This document shows, piece by piece, positions 2,650-52,756 of a stretch of DNA of 64,000 bases. The stretch comes from Vampirovibrionales bacterium (GTDB lineage: Bacteria; Cyanobacteriota; Vampirovibrionia; Vampirovibrionales; Vampirovibrionaceae). Positions within the stretch are counted from its first letter, which is position 1, and each line of letters opens with the position of its first letter. A model generated the notes under the pieces. It saw nothing but the letters and a program-made list of their open reading frames with translations. It was not told the origin of the DNA and made no database searches. Location: NCBI GenBank assembly GCA_039794365.1, contig JBDIVN010000006.1:71390-135389 (forward strand). Direction: 5' to 3'. Both the position numbers and the translations under genes were made by a program.

Positions 2650-3018
2650 CTAGGCTTTTTTCTTCATCGGAGCGCCGCGACGGCCCCGACGGGTTCTGGC
2701 GTTGGTCTTGGTGCGCTGGCCGCGGGCTGGCAGACCTTTTCTGTGGCGCTGGCCGCGATAGGAGTTGATCTCGATAAGCCGCTTGACGTTGAGGCCCTCC
2801 ATCCGGCGAAGATCGCCTTCCACCTGGTAGTGGCTCTCAATCTCGTCTTTCAGGGCCGTCACTTCGCTCTCGGAAAGATCCTCGACCCGTTTGTCGGGAT
2901 CGATGCCGGTGGCTGCCAGGATTTTCACGCTCAGCGTGGACCCGATACCGAAAATATAGGGGAGGGCAAACCGGATTTTCTTTTTCCGGGGAAGATCGAC
3001 ACCTACGATTCTAGCCAT
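2650..3018 (-). CDS. rpsM: 30S ribosomal protein S13
   Basis: 122-aa ORF starting [10 protein letters not shown], which is diagnostic for S13. Confidence 0.92.
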
Positions 3019-3236
3019 TAACGACTCCTAAACTGTTCAAACCTGTCTGATTACGGACAATCTGCGGGTGGGGTCAATAAAGTAATGTAAAAACGATAGG
3101 GAATCAAGAGGTTACACCGAAAAACGCCGCGAGGGGATTAACTTTTGTAATTGTGCCGCCGTGGAAAGGACACGGCAACGGGCCGGTCGCAATGACCGGC
3201 ACCTTATTGCGACCCGTCGGCGCCCGCCATGGACAA

Positions 3237-4468: not shown

Positions 4469-5296
4469 CTAGACGCGAACGACTTTCATCAGGAGAGCAA
4501 TGGCCAGGGGCACGGCCAGCGCCAGGAGGATTCCCAGGGTTTTGCTCAGCCCCGGCTGCGGCTCCTTGAGATAGTTTTCCATGTTCAGCAGCAGTTCCTC
4601 GGTGATGGCCTCCGGCTTGCGATCCCCGTTGAGTTCGGTCAGCAGGCCCATGCCGTCGAGCTTGTCGATCATCGGCTGGGTGTCCGCCTTGAAGGATTCG
4701 AGGCGCTTGCGCACCACCTCTTCCTTGTCGTCGTCGCGCTGGTAATAATCCGGGTTGCTGGCCAGGAAGGTCTTCTCATCGGTCGTGCCGGGATCGAACC
4801 CAGGCGGGTGGAAGCCCGCGATGCGCAGGTTGTAGACGTTGCCCGTGGGCTTGTGGAAGACCCGGCCCGCGGCGCGGTCAATCAGGGTTTGGGGGTCCTC
4901 GAACTTGAGGTAGAAAGCCTTGGCGAGATCGGCGCCCACTTTATTGCACATATCGAGCAATTTGTCGAGTTGTTCGATATTGCGGGGGAAGCCGTCGAGG
5001 ATGAAGCCGGTGACGTTGGGGTTCTTGCGGGCGGCCTTGGTCAGCCCTTCTTCCAGCACCCCGATGACAATATCGATATCCACCAGCTTGCCCGCCTTCT
5101 GGGCATCCCGGATCTTCTGACCCAGCGGGTTACTCTCGTCGGCGGCAGCTTCACGCAGCAAGGCGCCCATATCCACCTTGGAAAGCTTGTCCGGGTATGT
5201 TTTCAACAGGGCACCGGTCTGGGTCCCCTTGCCGCCATTGGGCGGGGCGATGAACGGGAAAAACCGCTTACCTTTCAAATCCTGCTGTTCAGCCAT
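4469..5296 (-). CDS. adk: adenylate kinase with extended LID and C-terminal hydrophobic tail
   Basis: P-loop PPNGGKGTQ and the GFILDGFPRN motif. ATG at 5296 is preceded by GGAAGGAG. The last about 25 aa (LGILLALAVPLAIALLMKVV) are TM-like. Confidence 0.85.
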   Translation of the reverse strand: MAEQQDLKGKRFFPFIAPPNGGKGTQTGALLKTYPDKLSKVDMGALLREAAADESNPLGQKIRDAQKAGKLVDIDIVIGVLEEGLTKAARKNPNVTGFILDGFPRNIEQLDKLLDMCNKVGADLAKAFYLKFEDPQTLIDRAAGRVFHKPTGNVYNLRIAGFHPPGFDPGTTDEKTFLASNPDYYQRDDDKEEVVRKRLESFKADTQPMIDKLDGMGLLTELNGDRKPEAITEELLLNMENYLKEPQPGLSKTLGILLALAVPLAIALLMKVVRV

Positions 5297-5396
5297 CGGA
5301 AAACTCCTTCCAAACCGTGAAATTGCTGTGTTCATTTGCTTTTCCCCTTTCCCCCGGTGTCTCTCTCAGTGATATTCAGTTTTCAGTGAACGTTTG

Positions 5397-6725
5397 CTAC
5401 TTGAGGAAGCCCTCGTATTGCCGGGCTAGCAGATGGACCCGGATCTGGTTCACCGTATCCAGTGCCACACCTACCATGATGATGAGCGACGTGGCCCCCA
5501 GACCGGCGAGAGTCGGAATCCGGAAAACCTGGGGCGCGTAGGACGCAATGAGCGTAATACCCGCAATGGCGAAGGCCCCGATCCAGATGATGCGCGTGAG
5601 GATCTCCTCCAGCTTGTCCGCCGTCGGCTTGCCGGGCTTGACGCCGGGAATGGAACTGCCGTACTTCTTCAGGTTCTCCGCAATCTCCTTGGGCTGCATG
5701 CTGGGGATGATCGAGGCATAGAAAAAGGTGAAGAAGATCACCAGCCCGAACATGATCAGACCGTAGAACCAGCCGTTGGAACCGATCCAGACCTGGTAGA
5801 AGGTCTTGGCCTCGGCGAAGAAGCTGCCCGGTTCCGGGGTGGCCAGGTTGAAGACCGTATCCGGAAAGGCCAGCACCGCGAAGGCGAAGATGATGGGCAT
5901 CACCCCCGCCGGATTGATCTTGAAGGGGATGTGGGTGTTCTGGCCGCCATAGATCTTGTTGCCCACCTGGCGTTTGGCGCTGACGATAAAGACGTTTCGC
6001 GTGGCTTCCTGGAGGATGATGATCAGCCCCACCAGCGCCAGGAAGACGGCCAAAAGCAGCACCAGCAGGAAGGACCGTTCCGGGTCGCCGGAAACCAGGG
6101 TGTAGGTCCGGTCCGCATAGACCGGAATCCCGGCCAGAATACCGATAAAGATGAGCAGTGACCCGCCGTTGCCGATCCCGCGCTCGGTGATCATCTCGGC
6201 CAGCCACAGGGCGAACACCGCCCCGCCGGTCAGCGACGCCACCGCCGCGATCCAGAAGAACGTCGGGTCCACGCCGGGCAGCAGGCTCGTCCCCCCCTGG
6301 GTAATCAGGCGGACAATGAGCGAGCCTTGCAGGATGGCCAGCGCCACGGTGAGATACCGGGTAATCTGGGACACCTTCTTGCGGCCCTGCTCTCCTTCCT
6401 CTTTCTGCAACTCCTCCAGGCGGGGAATCACCACCGTCATCAGCTGCATGATGATGGAGGCGGTAATGTAGGGACCGATGCCCAGCGCCAAAATGGAGAG
6501 CTGACCCAGGGCGCCGCCGGAGAACAGGTCCAGGAAGCCGCCGAGACCCCCCTGAAGATACTGCGCCATCGCGTCCGGGTGTACGCCCCAGATGGGGATC
6601 TGTACACCCAGACGGTAGATGGCAATAGCCGCAATGGTAAAGAGGATTTTTTCCTTGAGTCCCGACGCCTGGAACATCGCAACCAGATCATCGAGCCGGG
6701 GTACCTGGGACTTGGGTTTTGCCAC
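5397..6725 (-). CDS. secY: preprotein translocase subunit SecY
   Basis: 442-aa multipass membrane protein with conserved SecY motifs, in the canonical operon position. Confidence 0.93.
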   Translation of the reverse strand: MAKPKSQVPRLDDLVAMFQASGLKEKILFTIAAIAIYRLGVQIPIWGVHPDAMAQYLQGGLGGFLDLFSGGALGQLSILALGIGPYITASIIMQLMTVVIPRLEELQKEEGEQGRKKVSQITRYLTVALAILQGSLIVRLITQGGTSLLPGVDPTFFWIAAVASLTGGAVFALWLAEMITERGIGNGGSLLIFIGILAGIPVYADRTYTLVSGDPERSFLLVLLLAVFLALVGLIIILQEATRNVFIVSAKRQVGNKIYGGQNTHIPFKINPAGVMPIIFAFAVLAFPDTVFNLATPEPGSFFAEAKTFYQVWIGSNGWFYGLIMFGLVIFFTFFYASIIPSMQPKEIAENLKKYGSSIPGVKPGKPTADKLEEILTRIIWIGAFAIAGITLIASYAPQVFRIPTLAGLGATSLIIMVGVALDTVNQIRVHLLARQYEGFLK

Positions 6726-6763: not shown

Positions 6764-7288
6764 TCACTCAGCACCGACCAGGACGACGGAGCCACCGGCG
6801 CCTTCAAGCTTCTCGCGGGCACCGGGCGTTGCGTAGTGGGCATGCACCGTCACCTTGCGCTTGCAGTCACCTTTGCCCAGCAGACGGAGTCCGTCCATGC
6901 CAGGGCGCAGCAGGCCGCGCTCGATGAGCAGGTCATAGGTCAGTTCGGTTTCGTCCGGCAGAAGCACTTCCTCAAGATCGCAGACGTTGAGTTCCAGCCA
7001 TTTACGAACGTTGGGCTGGAAGAAGCCCTTGAACTTGGGGAGCCGACGGTAGGCCGGCATCTGTCCGCCTTCGAAGCCCCGTTTCTGGGAGTTCCCGGAA
7101 CGCTGACCTTCACCGTTATGGCCGCGGTTGGAGGTTTTACCGGCACCGGACGCCCGGCCCCGGCCAACCCGAAGCTTGGGCCGGGTTGCGCCCTTGGCCG
7201 GGCGCAGGGAGGTCAGGGTGATTGCCGGGGATTCCTGGGAATCCTGGCCTTGCCTGGATTTTGTTTTCGCTGAAGTTGTCTTGGCCAT
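6764..7288 (-). CDS. rplO: 50S ribosomal protein L15 with about 25-aa N-terminal extension
   Basis: L15 core (…RVGRG.ASG.GKTS.RGH.G…GFEGGQMP…RRLPKFKGF). Its start abuts the rpmD stop. Confidence 0.88.
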   Translation of the reverse strand: MAKTTSAKTKSRQGQDSQESPAITLTSLRPAKGATRPKLRVGRGRASGAGKTSNRGHNGEGQRSGNSQKRGFEGGQMPAYRRLPKFKGFFQPNVRKWLELNVCDLEEVLLPDETELTYDLLIERGLLRPGMDGLRLLGKGDCKRKVTVHAHYATPGAREKLEGAGGSVVLVGAE

Positions 7289-7290
7289 TG

Positions 7291-7479
7291 TTATGCCACC
7301 TCCACGGTAATCAGGTGGGAAATCCGGGTCACCATTCCCTTGATGGTGGGACTGTCGGCATGCTCGACCACGTCGTGCAGCTTTTTCAGTCCGAGGGCCC
7401 GGGCCACCTTGCGGTGCTTCTCCGGGCGTCCGATCAGGCTGCGGGTCAGCCTGATGCGGAGTTTTTTCTGTTGAGCCAT
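7291..7479 (-). CDS. rpmD: 50S ribosomal protein L30
   Basis: 62-aa ORF (…LRIRLTRS.IG…) lying between rpsE and rplO. Confidence 0.88.
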   Translation of the reverse strand: MAQQKKLRIRLTRSLIGRPEKHRKVARALGLKKLHDVVEHADSPTIKGMVTRISHLITVEVA

Positions 7480-7502
7480 GATGCGTGTTACCTCCGAAAA
7501 AG

Positions 7503-8054
7503 CTACTGAAGAATCTGCGACACTGTCATACCACGGCCTTTGGCAATCGTTTCAAAGGTCCTGAGTTCTTCGAGACCTTGAATGGCTGCGCGGGCCACGT
7601 TCAGCGGCGAGTTCGATCCGAGGGATTTCGAGAGAATGTCGCCAATGCCGGCCAGTTCAAAGACGGCACGGGCGGCCCCCCCGGCAATCACCCCGGTCCC
7701 TTCGGAGGCGGGCCGCATCACGATGAAGCTGCCGCCGGCTTTCGCCTTGACCATGTGGGGAATCGTACGGTTGTGCAGCGGGACGTCAATCAGGTTCTTG
7801 CGGGCCGCAGCGACCCCTTTCTGAATGGCGCCGATGACTTCGTTGGATTTGCCAATGCCCAGACCCACCTGACCGTTGTTGTTGCCAACAACCACCACGG
7901 CTCGGAAGCTCAGCTTCTTGCCGCCCTTGACGACTTTCGTCACGCGGCGGATCTGGATGACTTTCTCTTTCCAGTCACTGTCGCCAGCGGCCTGCGGGGC
8001 ACCCTGACTCGGATTTGCCAACTGCTGCTTTTGCTTGGCTTGTGCGTTGTCCAT
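7503..8054 (-). CDS. rpsE: 30S ribosomal protein S5 with a Q-rich N-terminal extension
   Basis: S5 core (…RVTKVVKGG…VVVGN..G.VG.G.GK…). ATG at 8054 (MDNAQ…) follows an AGGA. Confidence 0.88.
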   Translation of the reverse strand: MDNAQAKQKQQLANPSQGAPQAAGDSDWKEKVIQIRRVTKVVKGGKKLSFRAVVVVGNNNGQVGLGIGKSNEVIGAIQKGVAAARKNLIDVPLHNRTIPHMVKAKAGGSFIVMRPASEGTGVIAGGAARAVFELAGIGDILSKSLGSNSPLNVARAAIQGLEELRTFETIAKGRGMTVSQILQ

Positions 8055-44911: not shown

Positions 44912-46111
44912 ATGTTCAAGTTCATCAAGACCCGACTGACCCCCGGTGCCCGCGCCCTGAACGTGGCGCCTTTGTTCAGCGTGCCCCTGGACGAGTACAA
45001 GGCCACCGGGGAACGCGACGCCATTCTGGCCTCGTCCGGGATGGGTAAATCCTACCTGACCGGCGTCATCATGGAAGAGACGCTGGAAAGCGGCTGCAGC
45101 ATCTGCGTCATTGACCCGGAAGGGGAACACTTCACCCTGGCGGAACGCTACCCGATGATGATCATCGGCGGTGAACACGGCAACCTGCCCCTGGAAGAGG
45201 CGGCCATCGATCTTTTCATCGACGCCATGCTGAAAACCGGCTTCTCCGCCGTCTTCGATCTCTCGGAGTATCTGGATGACGAGCAGCAGCATCTGTACGG
45301 CGTCATTGCGGACAAGCTGTTCCAGGCCGAACAGAAGTACCGCCGCAAGATTCGCCTCATCGTGGAGGAGGCCCAGATCTACGCCCCCCAGAAAACCATG
45401 GGCGGAGCTGCGTCTTCGCGCAGCAAGACCAAGAAGATGGACCCGCTGCTGGCCAGCCAGAAGATCGCCAAGCGGGGCCGCAAGCGGGCCATTGACAGCC
45501 TGTGGGCCACCCAGCGTCCCGCCAGCATCAGCAAGGATATTCTCAGCCAGTGCAACCGGTTCTGGTTTGGGGGGATCACCTCCGAGCAGGATTACAAGGC
45601 CATTCGGCCCTTTCTTAACGAGGCGGGGATCTCCTTTGCGGAGATCAAGGCTCTGCACCCCGGCGAGTTCTACTTTTACAGCAAGGGGATGACCAAGAAG
45701 ATCAAGATCCGCAAGCGCCACTGCAAACACGCCGGGGCCACGCCGGAGGCGGGCATGAACTTTCACGCCACGGTGAACAGTTCCATGGAGAAAGCCATCG
45801 CCTCGCTGACCGAAGCCGTTGCCCAGCGGGCCGTCGAGAAGCAGAAGGAAGAATCGGAAATCGCCCTGCTCAAGGCCCAGATCCGCGAACTGAAGAAGGA
45901 CAACGAGAACCTGCGCAAGGAACTGGAGCAGGAGCAGCTGGCCACCAAGGTGATTGAGCGGCTGGAGAAATCGCCCACATCCAGCACGTCGTCCTCACGG
46001 CGTCCCCGCAAGCCGGGAGGACAGGACGATGCGGCCCTGCAGGCCAAAATCGCGGAAAAGATCGAGGAATCCAGCCGGCGGCTGCATCCGACGAAAATCA
46101 ATCTCGACTAG
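44912..46111 (+). CDS. HerA/FtsK-like (DUF87) P-loop ATPase with C-terminal coiled coil
   Basis: Walker A SSGMGKSY, Walker B …LIVEEAQ, conserved WATQRP motif; C-terminal heptad-rich KQKEESEIALLKAQIRELKK… and a Ser/Arg tail. Confidence 0.6.
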   Translation: MFKFIKTRLTPGARALNVAPLFSVPLDEYKATGERDAILASSGMGKSYLTGVIMEETLESGCSICVIDPEGEHFTLAERYPMMIIGGEHGNLPLEEAAIDLFIDAMLKTGFSAVFDLSEYLDDEQQHLYGVIADKLFQAEQKYRRKIRLIVEEAQIYAPQKTMGGAASSRSKTKKMDPLLASQKIAKRGRKRAIDSLWATQRPASISKDILSQCNRFWFGGITSEQDYKAIRPFLNEAGISFAEIKALHPGEFYFYSKGMTKKIKIRKRHCKHAGATPEAGMNFHATVNSSMEKAIASLTEAVAQRAVEKQKEESEIALLKAQIRELKKDNENLRKELEQEQLATKVIERLEKSPTSSTSSSRRPRKPGGQDDAALQAKIAEKIEESSRRLHPTKINLD

Positions 46112-46169: not shown

Positions 46170-46439
46170 TTACGCGAAGATGGCGCCTGCCTCGTAGAGA
46201 TCCTGGCGCATCTCCAGGCGCTTCTGGGCGTCCTTGTCGTTCATCTGGTCCGCAATAGACACAATGTCATCCGCGCTCTGACTCTCCGAACGGGCGACAT
46301 CCAACAACTGGGCCATCAGGCCGGTGGCCGAGCCGTCGCTTCCGTAACTCTCCAGGCTTGCATTCGACGTTGATCCGTCGCGGCCCGGCCTCTTCTGCAT
46401 GGCCTGCACCATGCCCAGGGCACCAACACTGCCAAGCAT
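46170..46439 (-). CDS. small-protein family member A (C-terminal …LYEAGAIFA)
   Basis: ATG at 46439 preceded by a GGAGAGAGGAGAGAG purine tract; paralogous to the ORFs at 47014, 47596 and 48255. Confidence 0.5.
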   Translation of the reverse strand: MLGSVGALGMVQAMQKRPGRDGSTSNASLESYGSDGSATGLMAQLLDVARSESQSADDIVSIADQMNDKDAQKRLEMRQDLYEAGAIFA

Positions 46440-46687
46440 AAACGCTCTCTCCTCTCTCCGAACACTTCGTTTTTCGATCACAATCGCACACGGTTGCCGT
46501 ATAAAAATAAAAACGATTTTACGGTGCGGATTGCCCCGCCTCTCTCCAAAAGGCTTTGACGGGCTTTAGATTTTATTTATGCACCAGCGGCAAAAAAAAT
46601 GTTTTTATGCAAGCACAGGGAGCAACACACTCCTACAGAATCGGTATCAGGTACAGGCAGGGGATAACAGGAGGTTTGACAGCAAGT

Positions 46688-46900
46688 ATGGGTTTGGAAA
46701 TCGGACAAAAGATTCAGAATCCGCAGGTTCAGTTTGGCGGCGGTGAAAACGGCCAAGCTGGCGGAGCCAAGCAGGCGGGTGGCGCCGAGGGCGGTCCGAA
46801 GCCGCCGGAAGGCACCGGGTTCCCCGGGCTGGACAATCAGCAGGACGGCAAGAATCCGCAGCAGGCGCAAAAGCTGGAGATGAATTCCATCTTTTCATAG
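46688..46900 (+). CDS. small Gly/Gln-rich protein D (N-terminus resembles the Q/G-rich proteins; C-terminal …LEMNSIFS)
   Basis: AGGAGG 13 nt before the ATG; MGLEIGQKIQNPQVQFGGGENGQAGG… resembles MSLTIGFKPDQQQAQGQQGLGQAGQ of the 23899..25113 product. Confidence 0.4.
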   Translation: MGLEIGQKIQNPQVQFGGGENGQAGGAKQAGGAEGGPKPPEGTGFPGLDNQQDGKNPQQAQKLEMNSIFS

Positions 46901-47013
46901 TTTGAAATAAGGAGGTTAAGGACATCCACCCAGCCGGGTTTCGCCGGGCTGGATGGATGCATTGTCAGGAGATTCAGCAAGAGATAGCAAGAGAAAACAG
47001 TTAAAGCATTTTT

Positions 47014-47403
47014 TCAGGTTCCAAAAACGGCGCCCGCATCGAACAGCCCTTGGGACTGGGCGCGGCGGCGGCGTTTTTGCTCGTCTCGCGCCTGCATGCG
47101 CAGGTATTCGATCTCCTCGATGATCTTGCGTTGCTCGGCCCGGATCGCCAACTGGCGATCCAACTGGTTGACGGCCAGCATCTCGTTAAGGGACATGTCG
47201 GGCCTCACGCTGTTGGCCAGCGCAATGCGCTGATCGCTGTAATAAAAGCTGTCGCCGCTGCCGACGAGTTTGTCCAGGGCGCGTCCGCTCAGGTGCCGGT
47301 AGGCGCCGGGATTTCCAGCGACCTGGGCGGCCACGTCGGAAATGGGCCTGCCCAACGGGCGAAACACCGTATTCAGTGCCAGGGGGACACCGGACAGAGA
47401 CAT
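47014..47403 (-). CDS. small-protein family member B (C-terminal …LFDAGAVFGT)
   Basis: ATG at 47403 with GGAG 12 nt upstream; N-terminus MSLSGVPLAL…; basic Q/R-rich helix before the tail. Confidence 0.5.
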   Translation of the reverse strand: MSLSGVPLALNTVFRPLGRPISDVAAQVAGNPGAYRHLSGRALDKLVGSGDSFYYSDQRIALANSVRPDMSLNEMLAVNQLDRQLAIRAEQRKIIEEIEYLRMQARDEQKRRRRAQSQGLFDAGAVFGT

Positions 47404-47595
47404 TAGACACACACTCCGGGAAATTGCTCTTTCCAAACTGCTCTTCATGTTTATAAAAACATTAGAGCGTTCGAAATTGCCCGCCCGTTACAAAAGAAGC
47501 TTCTTAAAATTTGACCGGAACGCGGGGGGCCGCGCTCCGGTCATTCACTTCCCAACTTCCAAAAACGGATCTTTCCTCACTTTCCTCACTGAAAC

Positions 47596-47961
47596 CTAGT
47601 AGAAGACATGCCCCTGGGCGATGGCGTTCTCCTCGGAGATCCGGTCCTGTTCGCGCATCCGCTTGAAGCGGTCCAGTTGCACCTCCAGTTTCTCAATCTC
47701 GGCCATGATGGCTTTCAGAATATTGTTGAGCACCGCCAGTTGCGGGAAATAGCTGGACCAGTCGGACACCTGCCTTTTCTCCACCCGGCCCGTGAAATGG
47801 ACCGTATCGCGTGACACCATGAGATCGTTGCTGAGGCTGGCCGCCAACGCGGAGCGCTCGGAGAGCGCATTGTTGAATTGCGATTTCGCATCGCTCAGCG
47901 CGGCAATCGTTGCCAGTTCGCCAAAGAGGATTCCAATACTCACGACCTGTATCTCCCACAC
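47596..47961 (-). CDS. small-protein family member E (C-terminal …AIAQGHVFY)
   Basis: Start uncertain (GTG at 47961 or ATG at 47820); the C-terminal RMREQDR…AQGHVFY aligns with member B. Confidence 0.4.
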   Translation of the reverse strand: MWEIQVVSIGILFGELATIAALSDAKSQFNNALSERSALAASLSNDLMVSRDTVHFTGRVEKRQVSDWSSYFPQLAVLNNILKAIMAEIEKLEVQLDRFKRMREQDRISEENAIAQGHVFY

Positions 47962-48254
47962 AATAGACAGACGTACGGATTTGACTTGTTGAAACGTTAC
48001 GGGGGATCTTGTGCGCTACTTTCGCTTTCCTACCGGTTGCATAAAAACCTGCTTTTGATTTTTTGTGACAGCCTGTTTTGGCAGAGAACGGGGCGTTAGG
48101 CTAAAAACCTCTCCCCGAAAGCCTTTCCCATATTAACTTTTTTAATTTTTATAAGTCTTTTATATTTGCTACAGATGTACCAAATCTATCTTCAGGCGCT
48201 AAAAACCCGCTTGTTTTTCAAGGCGGGTCTGGTGGTATAACGAAAAACCTCGGC

Positions 48255-48560
48255 TTATGCAAAAACGGAGAGGCCGGAACTGATGGCCTGCTGGCGGCGA
48301 GCCGTCTCCTGCTTCTGCCGCTTTCGGGCCGCTTCGGCCATCAGCGAGTGGGCCTCGTACATGGAGGCGTTCAGGTTATTTTTCATCTCCAACTGGGTAT
48401 CCGCCTGGGCAATCTGCCCCAGAAAACGCGGATTGTTGTAGTTGGCGGCGGCACGATTCGCCAGCCCCATGCGGGCTTCGTTATTGCTCTGGATGCCGAA
48501 CGCGGCGTTGTTGGCGCCGTTAATGCCGCTCAGCCCTGAAAACAGCGTAATTGGTGACAT
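48255..48560 (-). CDS. small-protein family member C (C-terminal …ISSGLSVFA)
   Basis: ATG at 48560 with GAAGG upstream; N-terminus MSPITLFSGLSGINGANNAAFG; Asn/Ala-rich. Confidence 0.5.
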   Translation of the reverse strand: MSPITLFSGLSGINGANNAAFGIQSNNEARMGLANRAAANYNNPRFLGQIAQADTQLEMKNNLNASMYEAHSLMAEAARKRQKQETARRQQAISSGLSVFA

Positions 48561-48862
48561 AACAACCCACAGCCTTCTTTCATCTACTCGACGTCTTTAA
48601 GCATTAAACCCGTTTTTCCGATTTTGTTGCCACCTCAAAATGATTCATTTTGTATATACAGACAGCCACCAGCAAGAAATCCGCACGCTACAACTCATAC
48701 CCTGAGAGTGTTCCCAAGATCATAAAAGTTATTCGCTATGGTTTTTCAGAAACATATGCCATAGTGGTTAAAACAACCTCTCAGACTGAAGCGACCCGAT
48801 CCGCCGCCTCAGCGAGGCCATACACACCCACTCCCTGTTTCCAATTCAGGAGTTGTTTTGTC

Positions 48863-50338
48863 ATGACCAATTCTCCAAACCCATACCCCATTAGGCCGGA
48901 AATCGATCCACGGGCTGAATCCGCCTTACCGGTGATTCTGGAAGGAAGCGTCCGCAAACACGAAACCCTTCCGCCAGAAGGACGAAACCGGACGGGCGGA
49001 CTGCTGCAAGCCCTGCTCATGGAGGCCGCCAACATCAAGCAGGCGATCCGTCAGCAGAATGACCACCTGGGTGACGACCCGGATGCGTTCAAGACGTCCG
49101 GCCTGATCCAAATCCCCCGGTTTGAACCCCTGCCCGATGCCGCAGAACTCAACGCCGAACTGGATCGCCGTCAGCCGAACAGAAACACCGGGATGAAGGC
49201 GATTCACAATGCCGTCATCCAGAACGAAATCGAAAAGGAAAAAGCCCGCCGTCAGGCCATCCAGATGGAGGCCGTCGATCAACAGATGGCCCGCCTGGCC
49301 CGCGCCATCGTGGAAACGGCTGAAGCGCAGAAGATGCAGCAGGCCCGCAGCTTCCACCGCCAGCAGGCCACAGCCTTTGATACAATACCGGGAATCATCC
49401 CCGGCTCCCTGGCCCGCCACGGCATCGGCCAGACGAACATACGCCCTTTGATTGCCGAAAGCCTGCCGATTGTTCACGCCATCCCCGGCGCCCAAAAACC
49501 AATCAGCCGCGCCGACTACCTCCGCCAGCAAAACGCCCTCGCCATGGAACGCGCCCAACGCGATGCCCTGTACGCCCAGCAGCGCTATTATGAGGAACAG
49601 ACCCGCCAAGAGCGCGTCCGACGGAATGTGGAATACCAGCAGCGTTTGAGAACCGGAAATCAACAGCAGGCCTTGGCTCAGCCGGTAAAAGTTTTCCCCC
49701 AGGCTCAATCCTCCTCCCCAGTGCCTGGAAGTTATGCTGAGGCTCTTAAAACCCTTGATGCTCTAACTGATAAAATAGATCAGGTAATCGAGAGCCTTCT
49801 TGAAGCAATACCGTTGCCTCCTCAGCAGGCTTATCAAATGGTTCAGGCTGGTCATCTTAGTCAGGTACGAACAAAGCGCGTCTCCCTATGGTATAACTGG
49901 GGCGATATACTAAAGGCTCCCCACGTTACTGCGGGTAATGCAAAGACCATTCCCCTTTCAGCTTACGAAAACGCCGTGGATCTGGCGGAGGCTTTGGACA
50001 GAGTCTGCAATAATCTGGGTTCCAAGGCTCCTATTAATAACTGGATCCGTCCAGGTAATCGCCGCTACCACGGCCAGGGTCTGGCAGTGGATTTTGAAGG
50101 AACGAAGGCCTGGAAAGACGGTCCACTTTATACAGCATTGAGACGAACTCCCGAGATCAAACGTATAGGACAACCTGATAATAACTATCCAGGAATGCAT
50201 GCGGATATTGGCCCTAATGGATGGGTTCCTGGGCGGCAGTTTCTTTTCATTGATAACGGATACTATAAACCTGGACGTGACTATACCGTTCCGGTTTTTA
50301 CTGGGCCACAATCGGCTCGTTTAAGGCCAGGAACGTAA
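48863..50338 (+). CDS. polymorphic-toxin-like protein: coiled-coil N-terminal region plus low-GC C-terminal M15/LAS-type zinc peptidase domain
   Basis: CAGGAG 11 nt before the ATG at 48863. C-terminal …RYHGQGLAVDF…GMHADIGP matches the H..G.AVD / H.D signature of M15 D-Ala-D-Ala carboxypeptidase-like peptidases. GC drops from about 62% to about 47% at about 49.71 kb. Confidence 0.55.
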   Translation: MTNSPNPYPIRPEIDPRAESALPVILEGSVRKHETLPPEGRNRTGGLLQALLMEAANIKQAIRQQNDHLGDDPDAFKTSGLIQIPRFEPLPDAAELNAELDRRQPNRNTGMKAIHNAVIQNEIEKEKARRQAIQMEAVDQQMARLARAIVETAEAQKMQQARSFHRQQATAFDTIPGIIPGSLARHGIGQTNIRPLIAESLPIVHAIPGAQKPISRADYLRQQNALAMERAQRDALYAQQRYYEEQTRQERVRRNVEYQQRLRTGNQQQALAQPVKVFPQAQSSSPVPGSYAEALKTLDALTDKIDQVIESLLEAIPLPPQQAYQMVQAGHLSQVRTKRVSLWYNWGDILKAPHVTAGNAKTIPLSAYENAVDLAEALDRVCNNLGSKAPINNWIRPGNRRYHGQGLAVDFEGTKAWKDGPLYTALRRTPEIKRIGQPDNNYPGMHADIGPNGWVPGRQFLFIDNGYYKPGRDYTVPVFTGPQSARLRPGT

Positions 50339-50340
50339 AT

Positions 50341-50673
50341 CTAGTCATTAGCAATATAGCTCTGAACAATACTACTAACCTCATTTTTACAGAAGTCAGA
50401 ATGGAGGGAAATTTCACCATTGGCATCAAAGCATCTGTCAGAAACAGCTTTCGCTCTTTTACTCCACTGCATGTCTTGTCCGGAATTAACACCACACTTT
50501 TCAAGCGCTTTTCTCATATCAAAGAGTGAATCCGCTTGTTTTTGAATAGTTTCCTGTTGTTCAATACGGTCTCTATGTAACCGTTCAACTTCATTTCTAC
50601 CCGTCCAAATGGTAACTATCATGCCTACTAGAAGCGCAGCAATCATAATATTTTTGATCACTTGGAACCTCAT
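50341..50673 (-). CDS. low-GC small membrane-anchored Cys-containing protein (candidate immunity protein)
   Basis: 110 aa with an N-terminal TM segment (IMIAALLVGMIVTIW) and 3 Cys; about 40% GC; stop lies 3 nt from the toxin stop, convergent. Confidence 0.45.
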   Translation of the reverse strand: MRFQVIKNIMIAALLVGMIVTIWTGRNEVERLHRDRIEQQETIQKQADSLFDMRKALEKCGVNSGQDMQWSKRAKAVSDRCFDANGEISLHSDFCKNEVSSIVQSYIAND

Positions 50674-50746: not shown

Positions 50747-51628
50747 TTGCTCAATATGATCACCACTGATGAGCACCGGGAACTGACCGTGGGCCTCAAG
50801 GCGGAAGTCGCCAAAAACTGGCTGCTGAACGATGGCCGCTCACTCGAAGATGGCCGTTGGGAGTACCGGGGTCAGGCGATGGATAACATCGAAGACGCCC
50901 AGTTGCTTGCCTATGCCGACGTAAAGAACGTCGAAGACACTGGCCGTCATCTGACCTCGGCCCAGTTGCAGAAAGCAGCGCTGGATATCGCTATGGGCGC
51001 TTATAAACTCTGGATCGGCGACGATATCAACACCCTGCTCGATCCTGAAGCTAATCTGCTGGAGAAAACCTGGTCCGGCATCTCCCTGGCCTCCAACTTC
51101 ATCCCCGGCGCTGCCATAGGTAAGCTGGGGCTGAAGACAATCACGGCCTTTAGAAGACTCAGAGGCATCACCAAGGCCAGTGGCAAGATTCCGGCGAATA
51201 TAGCCCGAAGTCCTCGAGCCCTTCGGCAGCTTCAGCAGAAAATGAAGCTGACCGACGCTCAAATTGCCGCTTTCAAAAAAGATCCCACAAAATTCAGAAA
51301 CGGACGATTTGAGCACATCGAAGTCTACAAGGGACCGAAAGACACTGCAATTTTTCGGACTAAGATAAAATCCAATATTGCAGATGGCTCTCATACGGTT
51401 AGAGAGTACCTAGTAGATAAAAATGGAAAGCTCTTGTTTCAAGCGCATAAAACTCAACTGAGAAACGGCTCTTTTCGTCATTGGCGAATCGATCAAGAAG
51501 GACCTTTTTCGGAACTTTTTCAAAAAGCAGCTAGGCGTGGCCAAAAGGTAAAGCCACAAATTGATGGACCCTTCGAAGATGAATATTACAATACTTGGCA
51601 ACAAATATTAGACAAGGTAGGAGAATAA
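50747..51628 (+). CDS. orphan polymorphic-toxin C-terminal module (conserved pretoxin segment plus low-GC toxin tip)
   Basis: 293 aa. The first about 150 codons are at genome-like GC and the last about 140 at about 42% GC. No secretion domain; followed by a translationally coupled small gene. Confidence 0.45.
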   Translation: MLNMITTDEHRELTVGLKAEVAKNWLLNDGRSLEDGRWEYRGQAMDNIEDAQLLAYADVKNVEDTGRHLTSAQLQKAALDIAMGAYKLWIGDDINTLLDPEANLLEKTWSGISLASNFIPGAAIGKLGLKTITAFRRLRGITKASGKIPANIARSPRALRQLQQKMKLTDAQIAAFKKDPTKFRNGRFEHIEVYKGPKDTAIFRTKIKSNIADGSHTVREYLVDKNGKLLFQAHKTQLRNGSFRHWRIDQEGPFSELFQKAARRGQKVKPQIDGPFEDEYYNTWQQILDKVGE

Positions 51629-51629
51629 T

Positions 51630-52025
51630 ATGGAAACGGAAAAAGAGATTCTGGATTCATTGGTTGCTTTTAACCGGCCCTTAGAGGAATTGGTGCCTTT
51701 AGTATGGCCGCTTAAGTTTCGGTATTCCGCTCCCATTACCCACATTACCCGGCAGGATATTATTTCAGTGATGAATCGTTATCTGGCCGGAGAATTTGAC
51801 GGAGATACGCTGGAATTTTGGGCCGATCTCGTCTTTGATCGCCTCTTTTATGATGTACCGACCAGTGGCCCCCTCGAAATGGAAACAAACTATACAGATG
51901 CCATTGACAATGTGTTGGAAATTCTGACATATGAGCCTGAGCGGGGGCATCCACACACGCCGGAGTTTATCCGTCAGCTTATTGACGAACTGGAAAACGC
52001 CAAGCTTGACCCTGTGGAGGCTTGA
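51630..52025 (+). CDS. candidate immunity protein (acidic, 131 aa)
   Basis: ATG lies 1 nt after the stop of 50747..51628 (TAATATG); acidic with no TM; paralog at 52276..52692. Confidence 0.45.
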   Translation: METEKEILDSLVAFNRPLEELVPLVWPLKFRYSAPITHITRQDIISVMNRYLAGEFDGDTLEFWADLVFDRLFYDVPTSGPLEMETNYTDAIDNVLEILTYEPERGHPHTPEFIRQLIDELENAKLDPVEA

Positions 52026-52074
52026 TTCAATCTGCACATTTAAAAACCGAATAGAATAGGCAAGTATCAAGAGA

Positions 52075-52108
52075 GCGGCTGATGGAACCTTCCATCAGCC
52101 TTTTTTTA
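52075..52108 (+). terminator. rho-independent terminator
   Basis: GGCTGATGGA-ACCT-TCCATCAGCC stem-loop followed by T7. Confidence 0.7.
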
Positions 52109-52275: not shown

Positions 52276-52692
52276 ATGGCGTGGTTAGAAAGGAGCCCGG
52301 TGGTGATCGCTGAAGACAAAATAAAGCCGGTGGTTCAGGCCTTTGTGAAACAGGGAGGGTATCCCTCTCCCGAGGATCGCAAAAATGTCTGGCAGTTTCA
52401 TGAGCGGAACTGTCCTGAACATGCCTTTGTCATCGCGACTCGAGCCGATGTGATTCGGGAAGCAGACCGGTTTCTGAATCAGGAAATCACCGGTGCAGAC
52501 CTGGCGGCATGGGCTGATGGCATTATTTTCCTGGCCGGTGGCGGCCTGGTTGAATATGACCCGGATTACCGGGACGAGATTGTCAACGCCCTGGAAGAAT
52601 TGGCAAGTGAAGAAGAAAACCTGACGCTTGAAGTCATAACGCGAGTCAAGAAGTCTTCCATAGAGAACGGTGAGATGAATTTCAGTTTTTAA
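52276..52692 (+). CDS. orphan immunity-like protein, paralog of 51630..52025
   Basis: Shared block YLAGEFDGDTLEFWADLVF vs FLNQEITGADLAAWADGIIF; its 3' flank and terminator are a diverged copy of 52035-52108. Confidence 0.45.
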   Translation: MAWLERSPVVIAEDKIKPVVQAFVKQGGYPSPEDRKNVWQFHERNCPEHAFVIATRADVIREADRFLNQEITGADLAAWADGIIFLAGGGLVEYDPDYRDEIVNALEELASEEENLTLEVITRVKKSSIENGEMNFSF

Positions 52693-52726
52693 AAACCGGA
52701 TAGAGCAGGTAAGTACCCAGGAGAGC

Positions 52727-52756
52727 AGCTGATGGAAATTCCATCAGCTTTTTTAC
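52727..52756 (+). terminator. rho-independent terminator (duplicate of 52075-52108)
   Basis: AGCTGATGGA-AAT-TCCATCAGCT followed by T6. Confidence 0.65.

Follow-up and report, generated by a model that had tools for sequence, protein, structure and literature searches.

A candidate effector–immunity cassette on a helical protein of a Vampirovibrionales bacterium: a predicted M15A peptidase tip and its convergent exported partner

The DNA considered here is a 64,000-nucleotide (nt) stretch—the window—of contig JBDIVN010000006.1 (positions 71,390 to 135,389, forward strand; GenBank assembly GCA_039794365.1) from a Vampirovibrionales bacterium. It contains a gene for a 491-amino-acid (aa) protein whose last part is encoded by DNA conspicuously poor in G+C and is predicted to be a zinc peptidase. 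Next to it, on the opposite strand, lies a small open reading frame (ORF) for a membrane-anchored, cysteine-containing protein. The reading we favor, with middling confidence, is that a mobile peptidase-plus-inhibitor cassette has been grafted onto a resident helical protein, and that the outcome is probably an antibacterial effector accompanied by its immunity protein.

The proposed course of events is this. The 3′ third of the large gene and the small convergent ORF would together form one mobile two-gene cassette. Its enzyme, a divergent zinc peptidase of the M15A type (LAS fold), would cleave the peptides of peptidoglycan, and its small exported protein, probably disulfide-stapled, would neutralize that enzyme on the outward side of the cytoplasmic membrane. 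A resident gene in an ancestor of the lineage would have encoded a long-helix protein, and by recombination the cassette would have joined the 3′ end of that gene; the resulting product would have about 280 aa of helical N-terminal region, presumably serving delivery or assembly, plus a tip that lyses cell walls. Most likely it would be used as an antibacterial effector, with the partner acting as an immunity protein that shields the producer. The features concerned are as follows, in window coordinates (GC is the fraction of G+C, and GC3 is that fraction at third codon positions):

48863 to 50338, plus strand: ORF for the 491-aa protein, helical N-terminal region plus predicted M15A peptidase tip, under purifying selection when compared with its orthologue.
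48863 to 49699, plus strand: N-terminal region, aa 1–279, of native composition (GC 0.60, GC3 0.70), with two long helices.
49700 to 50338, plus strand: low-GC tip, aa 280–491, comprising a leader helix, the predicted M15A/LAS zinc-peptidase domain (about aa 315–470) and a beta-hairpin tail.
50069 to 50092, plus strand: H403-x6-D410, the first two predicted zinc ligands, within YHGQGLAVDF; invariant, and aligned with the H-x6-D of 1lbu.
50198 to 50206, plus strand: H446-x-D448, the predicted third zinc ligand and catalytic acid, within GMHADIGP; placed by alignment.
50341 to 50673, minus strand: ORF for a 110-aa membrane-anchored protein, the candidate inhibitor or immunity partner, with a transmembrane (TM) stretch at residues 5–23 and 38.8% GC.

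The large gene starts with ATG at 48863, 11 nt downstream of an AGGAG motif, and ends with TAA at 50336–50338; its frame is open from a TTG at 48650 to that stop. The product is identical to the 491-aa protein (P0001) called in the NCBI and Logan public assemblies. An initial annotation, made from the letters alone, had placed an abrupt switch in composition at about 49.71 kb, and the switch is indeed there. In 200-nt steps GC runs at 0.59–0.64 over 48.9–49.7 kb, at 0.455–0.525 over 49.7–50.3 kb, and at 0.39–0.42 across the small reverse-strand ORF, which is thus even AT-richer than the peptidase tip. The GC3 of 0.70 in codons 1–279 gives way to 0.40 in codons 280–491, against values of 0.77–0.83 in the flanking rnc, cdsA, frr, sdhA and ATPase genes. 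In a change-point scan GC3 differs most across codon 285 (about nt 49718), by 0.305; of 37 other window genes none differs internally by more than 0.173, and among the 39 genes tested only that at 50747–51628, to which we return, has a comparable break. A compositional discontinuity at the junction of N-terminal region and tip is one hallmark of polymorphic toxins. The low-GC tract, a mosaic, extends past the small ORF to about 52.75 kb.

The tip contains two motifs, YHGQGLAVDF (residues 402–411) and GMHADIGP (residues 444–451), that had been read as an M15/LAS signature. A direct profile search, proposed as the check on that reading, came back empty: neither the full protein nor residues 280–491 matches any Pfam or NCBIfam model at E ≤ 1, M15 models included, and so there is no hit to PF08291, PF05951, PF13539, PF02557 or an NCBIfam equivalent. 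Searches of PHROGs and PADLOC with the full protein and the C-terminal 212 aa likewise returned nothing. This branch of M15A is invisible to the current curated family models. Because the direct search gives no match, the assignment had to be made by transitive homology and structure modeling instead, and by that route the original reading held. Run exhaustively against 1.84 billion representative proteins, phmmer recovered only 28 relatives at E ≤ 1e-3 (E 2.8e-33 to 7e-4), half of which (14/28) match Peptidase_M15_3 (PF08291; best E 7.6e-17), while seven match M15_2 (PF05951) and three M15_4 (PF13539).

Across the alignment of 28 sequences six residues never vary (W394, R396, H403, G406, D410 and H446), and D448 is conserved in at least 90%. 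Together they display the pattern H-x6-D … H-x-D, in which the zinc-ligand triad can be recognized. A profile built from the 28 sequences matches 1lbu, the Streptomyces albus Zn DD-peptidase, with E 0.0078, spanning both motifs, and this match sets H446 against the last His of H-x-H in 1lbu. The predicted role of D448 is the one suggested by H-x-D, the usual motif ending in Peptidase_M15_3 and M15_2. Modeled by AlphaFold with the family alignment, the domain adopts the LAS (hedgehog/DD-peptidase) fold with a predicted local distance difference test score (pLDDT) of 87.6 and a predicted template-modeling score of 0.81. The viral structure library BFVD yields 18 matches at E ≤ 1e-3, mostly phage proteins annotated ‘Peptidase M15A, C-terminal’. 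Transitive homology, motif and modeled fold thus establish the C-terminus as a predicted M15A/LAS zinc peptidase, if a divergent one: the domain is only 16% identical to 1lbu, it falls below detection by every Pfam and NCBIfam M15 model, and it carries an extra N-terminal helix and a conserved C-terminal ‘FIDNG…GGG’ beta-hairpin extension. Peptidoglycan would be its substrate.

The convergent gene for a low-GC, 110-aa, membrane-anchored protein proved real as well. Its hydrophobic stretch at residues 5–23 has a Kyte–Doolittle mean of 2.14, its cysteines are Cys60, Cys81 and Cys95, and its stop codon lies 2 nt, not the 3 nt first given, from that of the large gene. We compared the surroundings of eight family members with flanking DNA, the window included. 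An opposite-strand gene for an exported protein with a Cys pair stands beside the peptidase gene in all eight, and abuts or overlaps it in seven:

Window: small ORF at 50341–50673, peptidase P0001, 2-nt gap between the stops.
L001: small ORF at 2882–3220, peptidase P0002, 41-nt overlap with the peptidase gene.
L003: small ORF at 5619–5927, peptidase P0014.
L004: small ORF at 4832–5107, peptidase P0003; a second one at 5186–5599.
L085: small ORF at 4915–5193, peptidase P0010.
L088: small ORF at 2371–2652, peptidase P0004; a second one at 2677–2988.
L090: small ORF at 6858–7106, peptidase P0007, 4-nt overlap.
L087: small ORF at 7323–7577, peptidase P0012, 1.6 kb away.

Common to the eight partners are a helical stretch, a Cys-x(8–23)-Cys pair and, at the N-terminus, either an anchor or a signal peptide of the A-x-A type. 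At every one of the loci the N-terminal part of the peptidase protein is less AT-rich than both the peptidase part and the small ORF. A conserved small gene next door is a second hallmark of polymorphic toxins, and protection is its candidate role; the layout is convergent, however, rather than co-directional and downstream as is usual. A common origin of the partners is plausible. The peptidase domains of P0004 and P0010 are 57% identical and their partners 50%, the parallel divergence expected, on sequence, of co-diverging cognates. The partners of the window and L001 can be aligned only over the anchor (35% identity over 52 aa), with the positions of Cys60 and Cys80/81 kept. Of the suggestion that the small protein confers immunity, then, the pairing stands in eight loci of eight; the immunity itself remains conjectural, the more so as these two partners align at the anchor only.

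A small membrane protein beside a peptidase that has no export signal could also be a lysis or secretion device of the holin/endolysin kind, akin to the type 10-like ChiW/ChiX module of Serratia. The small protein would let the peptidase through the membrane, and the wall would be opened for cargo release or autolysis. The peptidase has no signal peptide, like ChiX, and the small ORF has weak matches to Rz-like spanins (phrog_739, E 1.2e-4; phrog_214, E 1.4e-3) and to Pfam DUF2570 (E 0.024). But these matches are limited to the TM-plus-coiled-coil part and lie below any curated threshold, the two genes are convergent and not co-transcribed, there is no o-spanin or lipobox gene, and ChiW has three TM segments where the proteins here have one or none. 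At five loci (L003, L085, L088, L090 and L087), moreover, the partners have cleavable-type signal peptides and would be soluble in the periplasm, which excludes a holin or i-spanin role for the partner family. Nor does the window locus show what marks a phage lysis cassette, a holin or spanin gene co-transcribed with the enzyme in a phage genome. We think a device of this sort distinctly unlikely, and continue with the small protein as a candidate inhibitor.

How old is the graft? The one orthologue, P0002 (at L001, on another contig of the same sample), is 486 aa long and 74% identical over its whole length; its tip is the same, and its gene likewise breaks in GC part-way along. Nei–Gojobori estimates of synonymous divergence (dS) and of the nonsynonymous-to-synonymous ratio (omega) between the two genes are:

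N-terminal part: dS 0.86, omega 0.23.
Tip: dS 0.83–1.05, omega 0.12–0.15.

By these estimates both halves of the gene are under purifying selection. Because dS is equal in the two halves and the GC break is shared, the fusion is older than the split of the two carriers. Identity between the proteins is 82.5% over residues 280–450 and 60% over the last 40 residues. A hot spot of divergence, at 50213–50673 in the window and 2797–3220 in L001, takes in the last 40 peptidase codons together with the whole of the small ORF, and this tail and its neighbor may have been exchanged, or may be co-evolving, as a unit.

Purifying selection on both halves, in a gene that sits in the chromosome among core genes, is also what one would see if the protein were a housekeeping enzyme of wall remodeling—for division, shape, or the insertion of envelope machines—with the helical region as scaffold and the small protein as regulator. 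Its low GC would then be a family trait, and since the peptidase part is AT-richer in every locus, the cause could be a compositional constraint rather than repeated transfer. Several observations make this highly improbable to us. The family is extremely rare, 1.84e9 proteins having yielded 28 representatives, and only two genomes are known to encode the protein at full length; its patchy spread over unrelated N-terminal regions and phages does not fit; the enzyme has no export signal with which to reach the wall; and a GC3 of 0.40 against a background of 0.8 is inexplicable by amino-acid content. We turn now to the other carriers of the cassette.

The same peptidase domain occurs on unrelated N-terminal regions, and outside phage elements these are long, and glutamine-rich or helical. 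Two relatives, P0012 and P0007, are encoded on contigs of 9.5–14.7 kb (L087 and L090) that also contain a packaging-ATPase gene and a gene for a PM2-type double-jelly-roll capsid protein (Pfam P2_N/P2_C; phrog_8536, E 1.9e-16 and 3.5e-11). In gene content these elements resemble membrane-containing Vinavirales. The peptidases of the phage elements are short and have an N-terminal membrane anchor of their own. Pattern scans of IMG/VR found no relatives, a tblastn search of INPHARED with the window domain and P0020 found no match, and neither a pattern scan of GTDB species genomes nor a domain alignment against the Joint Genome Institute (JGI) metagenomes added any.

The whole arrangement could therefore be a phage legacy: the lysin of a membrane-containing (PM2/Jorvik-like) phage, with an exported anti-lysin expressed by the lysogen to block superinfection or premature lysis, what is left of it, domesticated or in decay, now being joined to a host gene and having no part in killing other bacteria. 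P0007 and P0012 lie in elements with PM2-type capsid and packaging-ATPase genes; at L090 a small exported Cys protein is again encoded convergently, with a 4-nt overlap between its gene and that of the peptidase; a phage integrase gene lies near the L088 locus; phage M15A peptidases are the best viral structure matches; and a PF08291-like M15 enzyme of Jorvik (Vinavirales) degrades cell walls in zymograms (PMC10589892). Against this, no capsid, packaging or integrase genes lie near the window locus, where the neighbors are rnc, cdsA and frr. Purifying selection has acted on both halves across a dS of about 0.9, which argues that this is no decaying remnant. The phage versions are short and membrane-anchored whereas the window version has a soluble helical region of 280 aa, and INPHARED and IMG/VR hold no sequence match. 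That the cassette comes from phages or serves them is an alternative to be taken seriously, since it does sit in phage elements, but as an account of the window locus we think it unlikely. This, the holin-like device and the housekeeping enzyme we all rate below an effector with its immunity protein.

A broader proposal joins several of these threads. The peptidase and its disulfide-stapled exported inhibitor might be an ancient two-gene module, not recognized before and common to Vinavirales-like phages and to cells, where it would have been grafted repeatedly onto unrelated long-helix N-terminal regions. These regions would then define a new, signal-less route by which a poorly known bacterial lineage delivers antibacterial effectors. 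We offer this tentatively, and as a whole it seems to us rather unlikely.

Tip exchange is seen in another lineage. At L003 (1282–2775, minus strand) a 497-aa protein shares the glutamine-rich N-terminal region of P0003 (E 8e-28), P0004 and P0010, and has another tip: it ends in a different domain, with GH…NNSC motifs and a weak match to Lnb_N/DUF4105. A TIR-domain gene adjoins it, and the same contig encodes the M15-tipped P0014. This is a genuine exchange of tips, in a lineage distant from that of the window gene.

The window protein's N-terminal region is less talkative. Its AlphaFold model has a pLDDT of 63 overall, with helices at residues 109–173 and 216–272 reaching 80–92 and disordered, proline-rich linkers between them. 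Residues 1–286 match nothing in Pfam, NCBIfam, PHROGs or PADLOC, and thus none of the delivery domains that polymorphic toxins carry; P0002 is the sole homologue found, and a pattern scan of the JGI metagenomes brought no further copies. Likeness to P0003, P0010 and P0014 came down to one weak local match to P0014 (pairwise E 0.015) that phmmer did not confirm, and was rejected. Presumably the region serves delivery or assembly.

No known signal takes the protein out of the cell. The highest mean over 19 residues on the Kyte–Doolittle scale is 0.79, so there is no hydrophobic segment that could be a signal peptide or TM segment, and together with the Pfam and NCBIfam scans this bears out the earlier statement that the 491-aa protein lacks both a signal peptide and a recognizable trafficking domain. 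Upstream, one stretch stands out: a 28-nt element, GATCATAAAAGTTATTCGCTATGGTTTT, within AT-rich leaders that are otherwise poorly conserved:

48718 to 48745, plus strand: conserved 28-nt element, candidate promoter or operator; exact match to L001 1376–1403.

It precedes both orthologous genes, is unique in the window, and would be expected by chance 0 times; it is a likely regulatory site. A sigma-70 promoter scan found none near the gene.

What, then, weighs against an effector and its immunity protein? The 491-aa protein has no export signal, no known trafficking domain and no machinery at hand, there being no recognizable secretion-system gene among the roughly 45 window ORFs scanned (most of those present), which are housekeeping or unrelated genes. 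No tip polymorphism is seen in this gene. Orthologues with a conserved, unvarying C-terminus had been named beforehand as a refuting result, and the comparison comes out that way: the single orthologue known keeps its tip unchanged, dS being equal for the two halves, though one orthologue is all there is to compare. Tip swapping is seen just in the distant lineage (L003 vs P0003) and in the neighboring gene described below. The eight loci are few, and they are not independent: one sample is the source of both the window and L001, and a second that of both L003 and L088. Similarity among the partners is architectural and, beyond two near pairs, not statistically significant. The rapid divergence of the window and L001 partners, whose peptidase domains are 82% identical, is odd for a tight, specific inhibitor. 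And the peptidase-plus-partner cassette also sits in phage elements. The label ‘polymorphic toxin with immunity’ is, we think, reasonable but only partly supported: the composition break and the conserved adjacent gene speak for it, the unchanged tip of the orthologue and the want of a trafficking domain or secretion system against it.

The DNA immediately downstream appears to hold a second case. Its features are:

50747 to 51628, plus strand: gene B, 293 aa, with a native N-terminal part (to about 51139) and a second low-GC tip (51140–51625).
51630 to 52025, plus strand: gene for a 131-aa cytoplasmic, immunity-like protein, starting 2 nt after the gene B stop.
52039 to 52105 (copy 1) and 52688 to 52754 (copy 2), plus strand: 67-nt 3′ element with a terminator-like hairpin and T-run, made up of repeats D2, D3 and D6.
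52276 to 52692, plus strand: orphan immunity-like gene for a 138-aa protein, a paralogue of the 131-aa ORF.

Gene B is the other window gene with a sharp break: its GC3 falls from 0.70 to 0.395, the best split giving a difference of 0.36. Its homology to L001 stops at 51136, just after GKLGLK; beyond that point L001 has a brief tail of unrelated sequence, and its copy of the gene is frameshifted. No homologues of its tip were found. The 131-aa and 138-aa proteins are paralogues (BLASTP E 5e-6), and the former matches no family in Pfam, NCBIfam or PADLOC. The direct repeat families D2, D3 and D6 are 82–94% identical and 649 nt apart, and each paralogous gene with its 3′ element makes up one 649-nt tandem unit. 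From its layout and composition this looks like a second, independent graft of tip plus immunity gene, with the immunity gene duplicated, and the region would therefore be a small toxin island beside rnc. The locus as a whole lies in the chromosome among core genes.

On the other side of the large gene are two further curiosities. At 44912–46111 (plus strand) is a gene for a 399-aa HerA/DUF87-type ATPase with a C-terminal coiled coil; we considered it as an export ATPase and rejected it, for its matches are to defense-type proteins (PADLOC HerA 2.3e-19, mad8 3.4e-14) and it is absent from the orthologous L001 locus. At 46170–48560 (minus strand) are four small helical ORFs of 103, 144, 121 and 101 aa, all ending …G..VF[A/G/Y] and all devoid of database matches. 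One alignment suggested that the 491-aa protein's N-terminal region might be a paralogue of these four, but phmmer scores are all below 10 bits, and we dropped the idea. The organism, too, is off the beaten track. The window proteins checked, Frr, RNase III and the ATPase among them, are all singletons at 90% identity in a collection of 15 billion proteins; SdhA is 60–70% identical to proteins of many phyla, and nothing in GTDB species genomes exceeds 70% identity to it. The DNA comes from a lineage of about 60% GC that has been little sampled.

Wall-degrading effectors with exported immunity proteins are already well known, and the window pair can be set beside several systems. Among type VI secretion system (T6SS) effectors, M15-type domains occur in proteins whose neighbors encode signal-peptide proteins (PMC6833914, PMC12135965): Tpe14 of Acinetobacter baumannii has a Peptidase M15_3 domain (PMC6833914), and WHIX effectors have M15-like domains (PMC12135965). 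Like these, the window protein joins an M15-type, presumably wall-lytic domain to a non-enzymatic region and has an adjacent small gene for an exported protein. Unlike them, it bears no VgrG, PAAR, MIX, WHIX or other T6SS marker, its N-terminal region is a long-helix module, and its partner gene is convergent rather than co-directional; nor is there a T6SS gene among the window ORFs scanned. Type VII secretion system (T7SS) toxins of the LXG kind, with TelC–TipC as the example (PMC6193138), come close in architecture. They, too, have a helical N-terminal region of some 200–300 aa without a signal peptide, a C-terminal toxin that acts outside the membrane and a membrane-tethered, outward-facing partner, these last two features being predictions in our case. 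The likeness stops at architecture: neither LXG (PF04740) nor WXG100 is matched at E ≤ 1, the window has no EssC/EccC gene, and the only FtsK/HerA-type ATPase nearby is the one with defense-type HerA/mad8 matches.

Lysins of the Jorvik Gp3 type (Vinavirales; PMC10589892) are PF08291-like peptidases of PM2-like elements, the very kind of element in which P0007 and P0012 are found; the window copy differs in being part of a cellular helical protein and in having no phage genes for neighbors. ChiX and ChiW (PMC5778951, PMC4259817) offer another parallel, a chromosomally encoded LAS zinc peptidase without a signal, bound for the periplasm, beside a gene for a small membrane protein. ChiX, however, is a stand-alone enzyme of 134 residues from the Ply500/VanX-like branch, and ChiW a three-TM holin encoded in the same operon, along with spanins, whereas the window partner is convergent and has a Cys pair and one TM stretch.

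Small two-cysteine exported partners of this sort are described in no database. If they are inhibitors, they would constitute a new class of proteinaceous inhibitors of LAS peptidases, and such inhibitors could serve against phage lysins or in the control of lytic enzymes. If so, too, the link that leads from phage lysin and anti-lysin to bacterial toxin and immunity protein would become experimentally tractable, and the helical N-terminal regions may indicate a delivery route not described before. Measured against the systems already known, what is new here is the divergent M15A branch, the undescribed class of small exported partners, the convergent layout, the phage connection and the putative delivery module.

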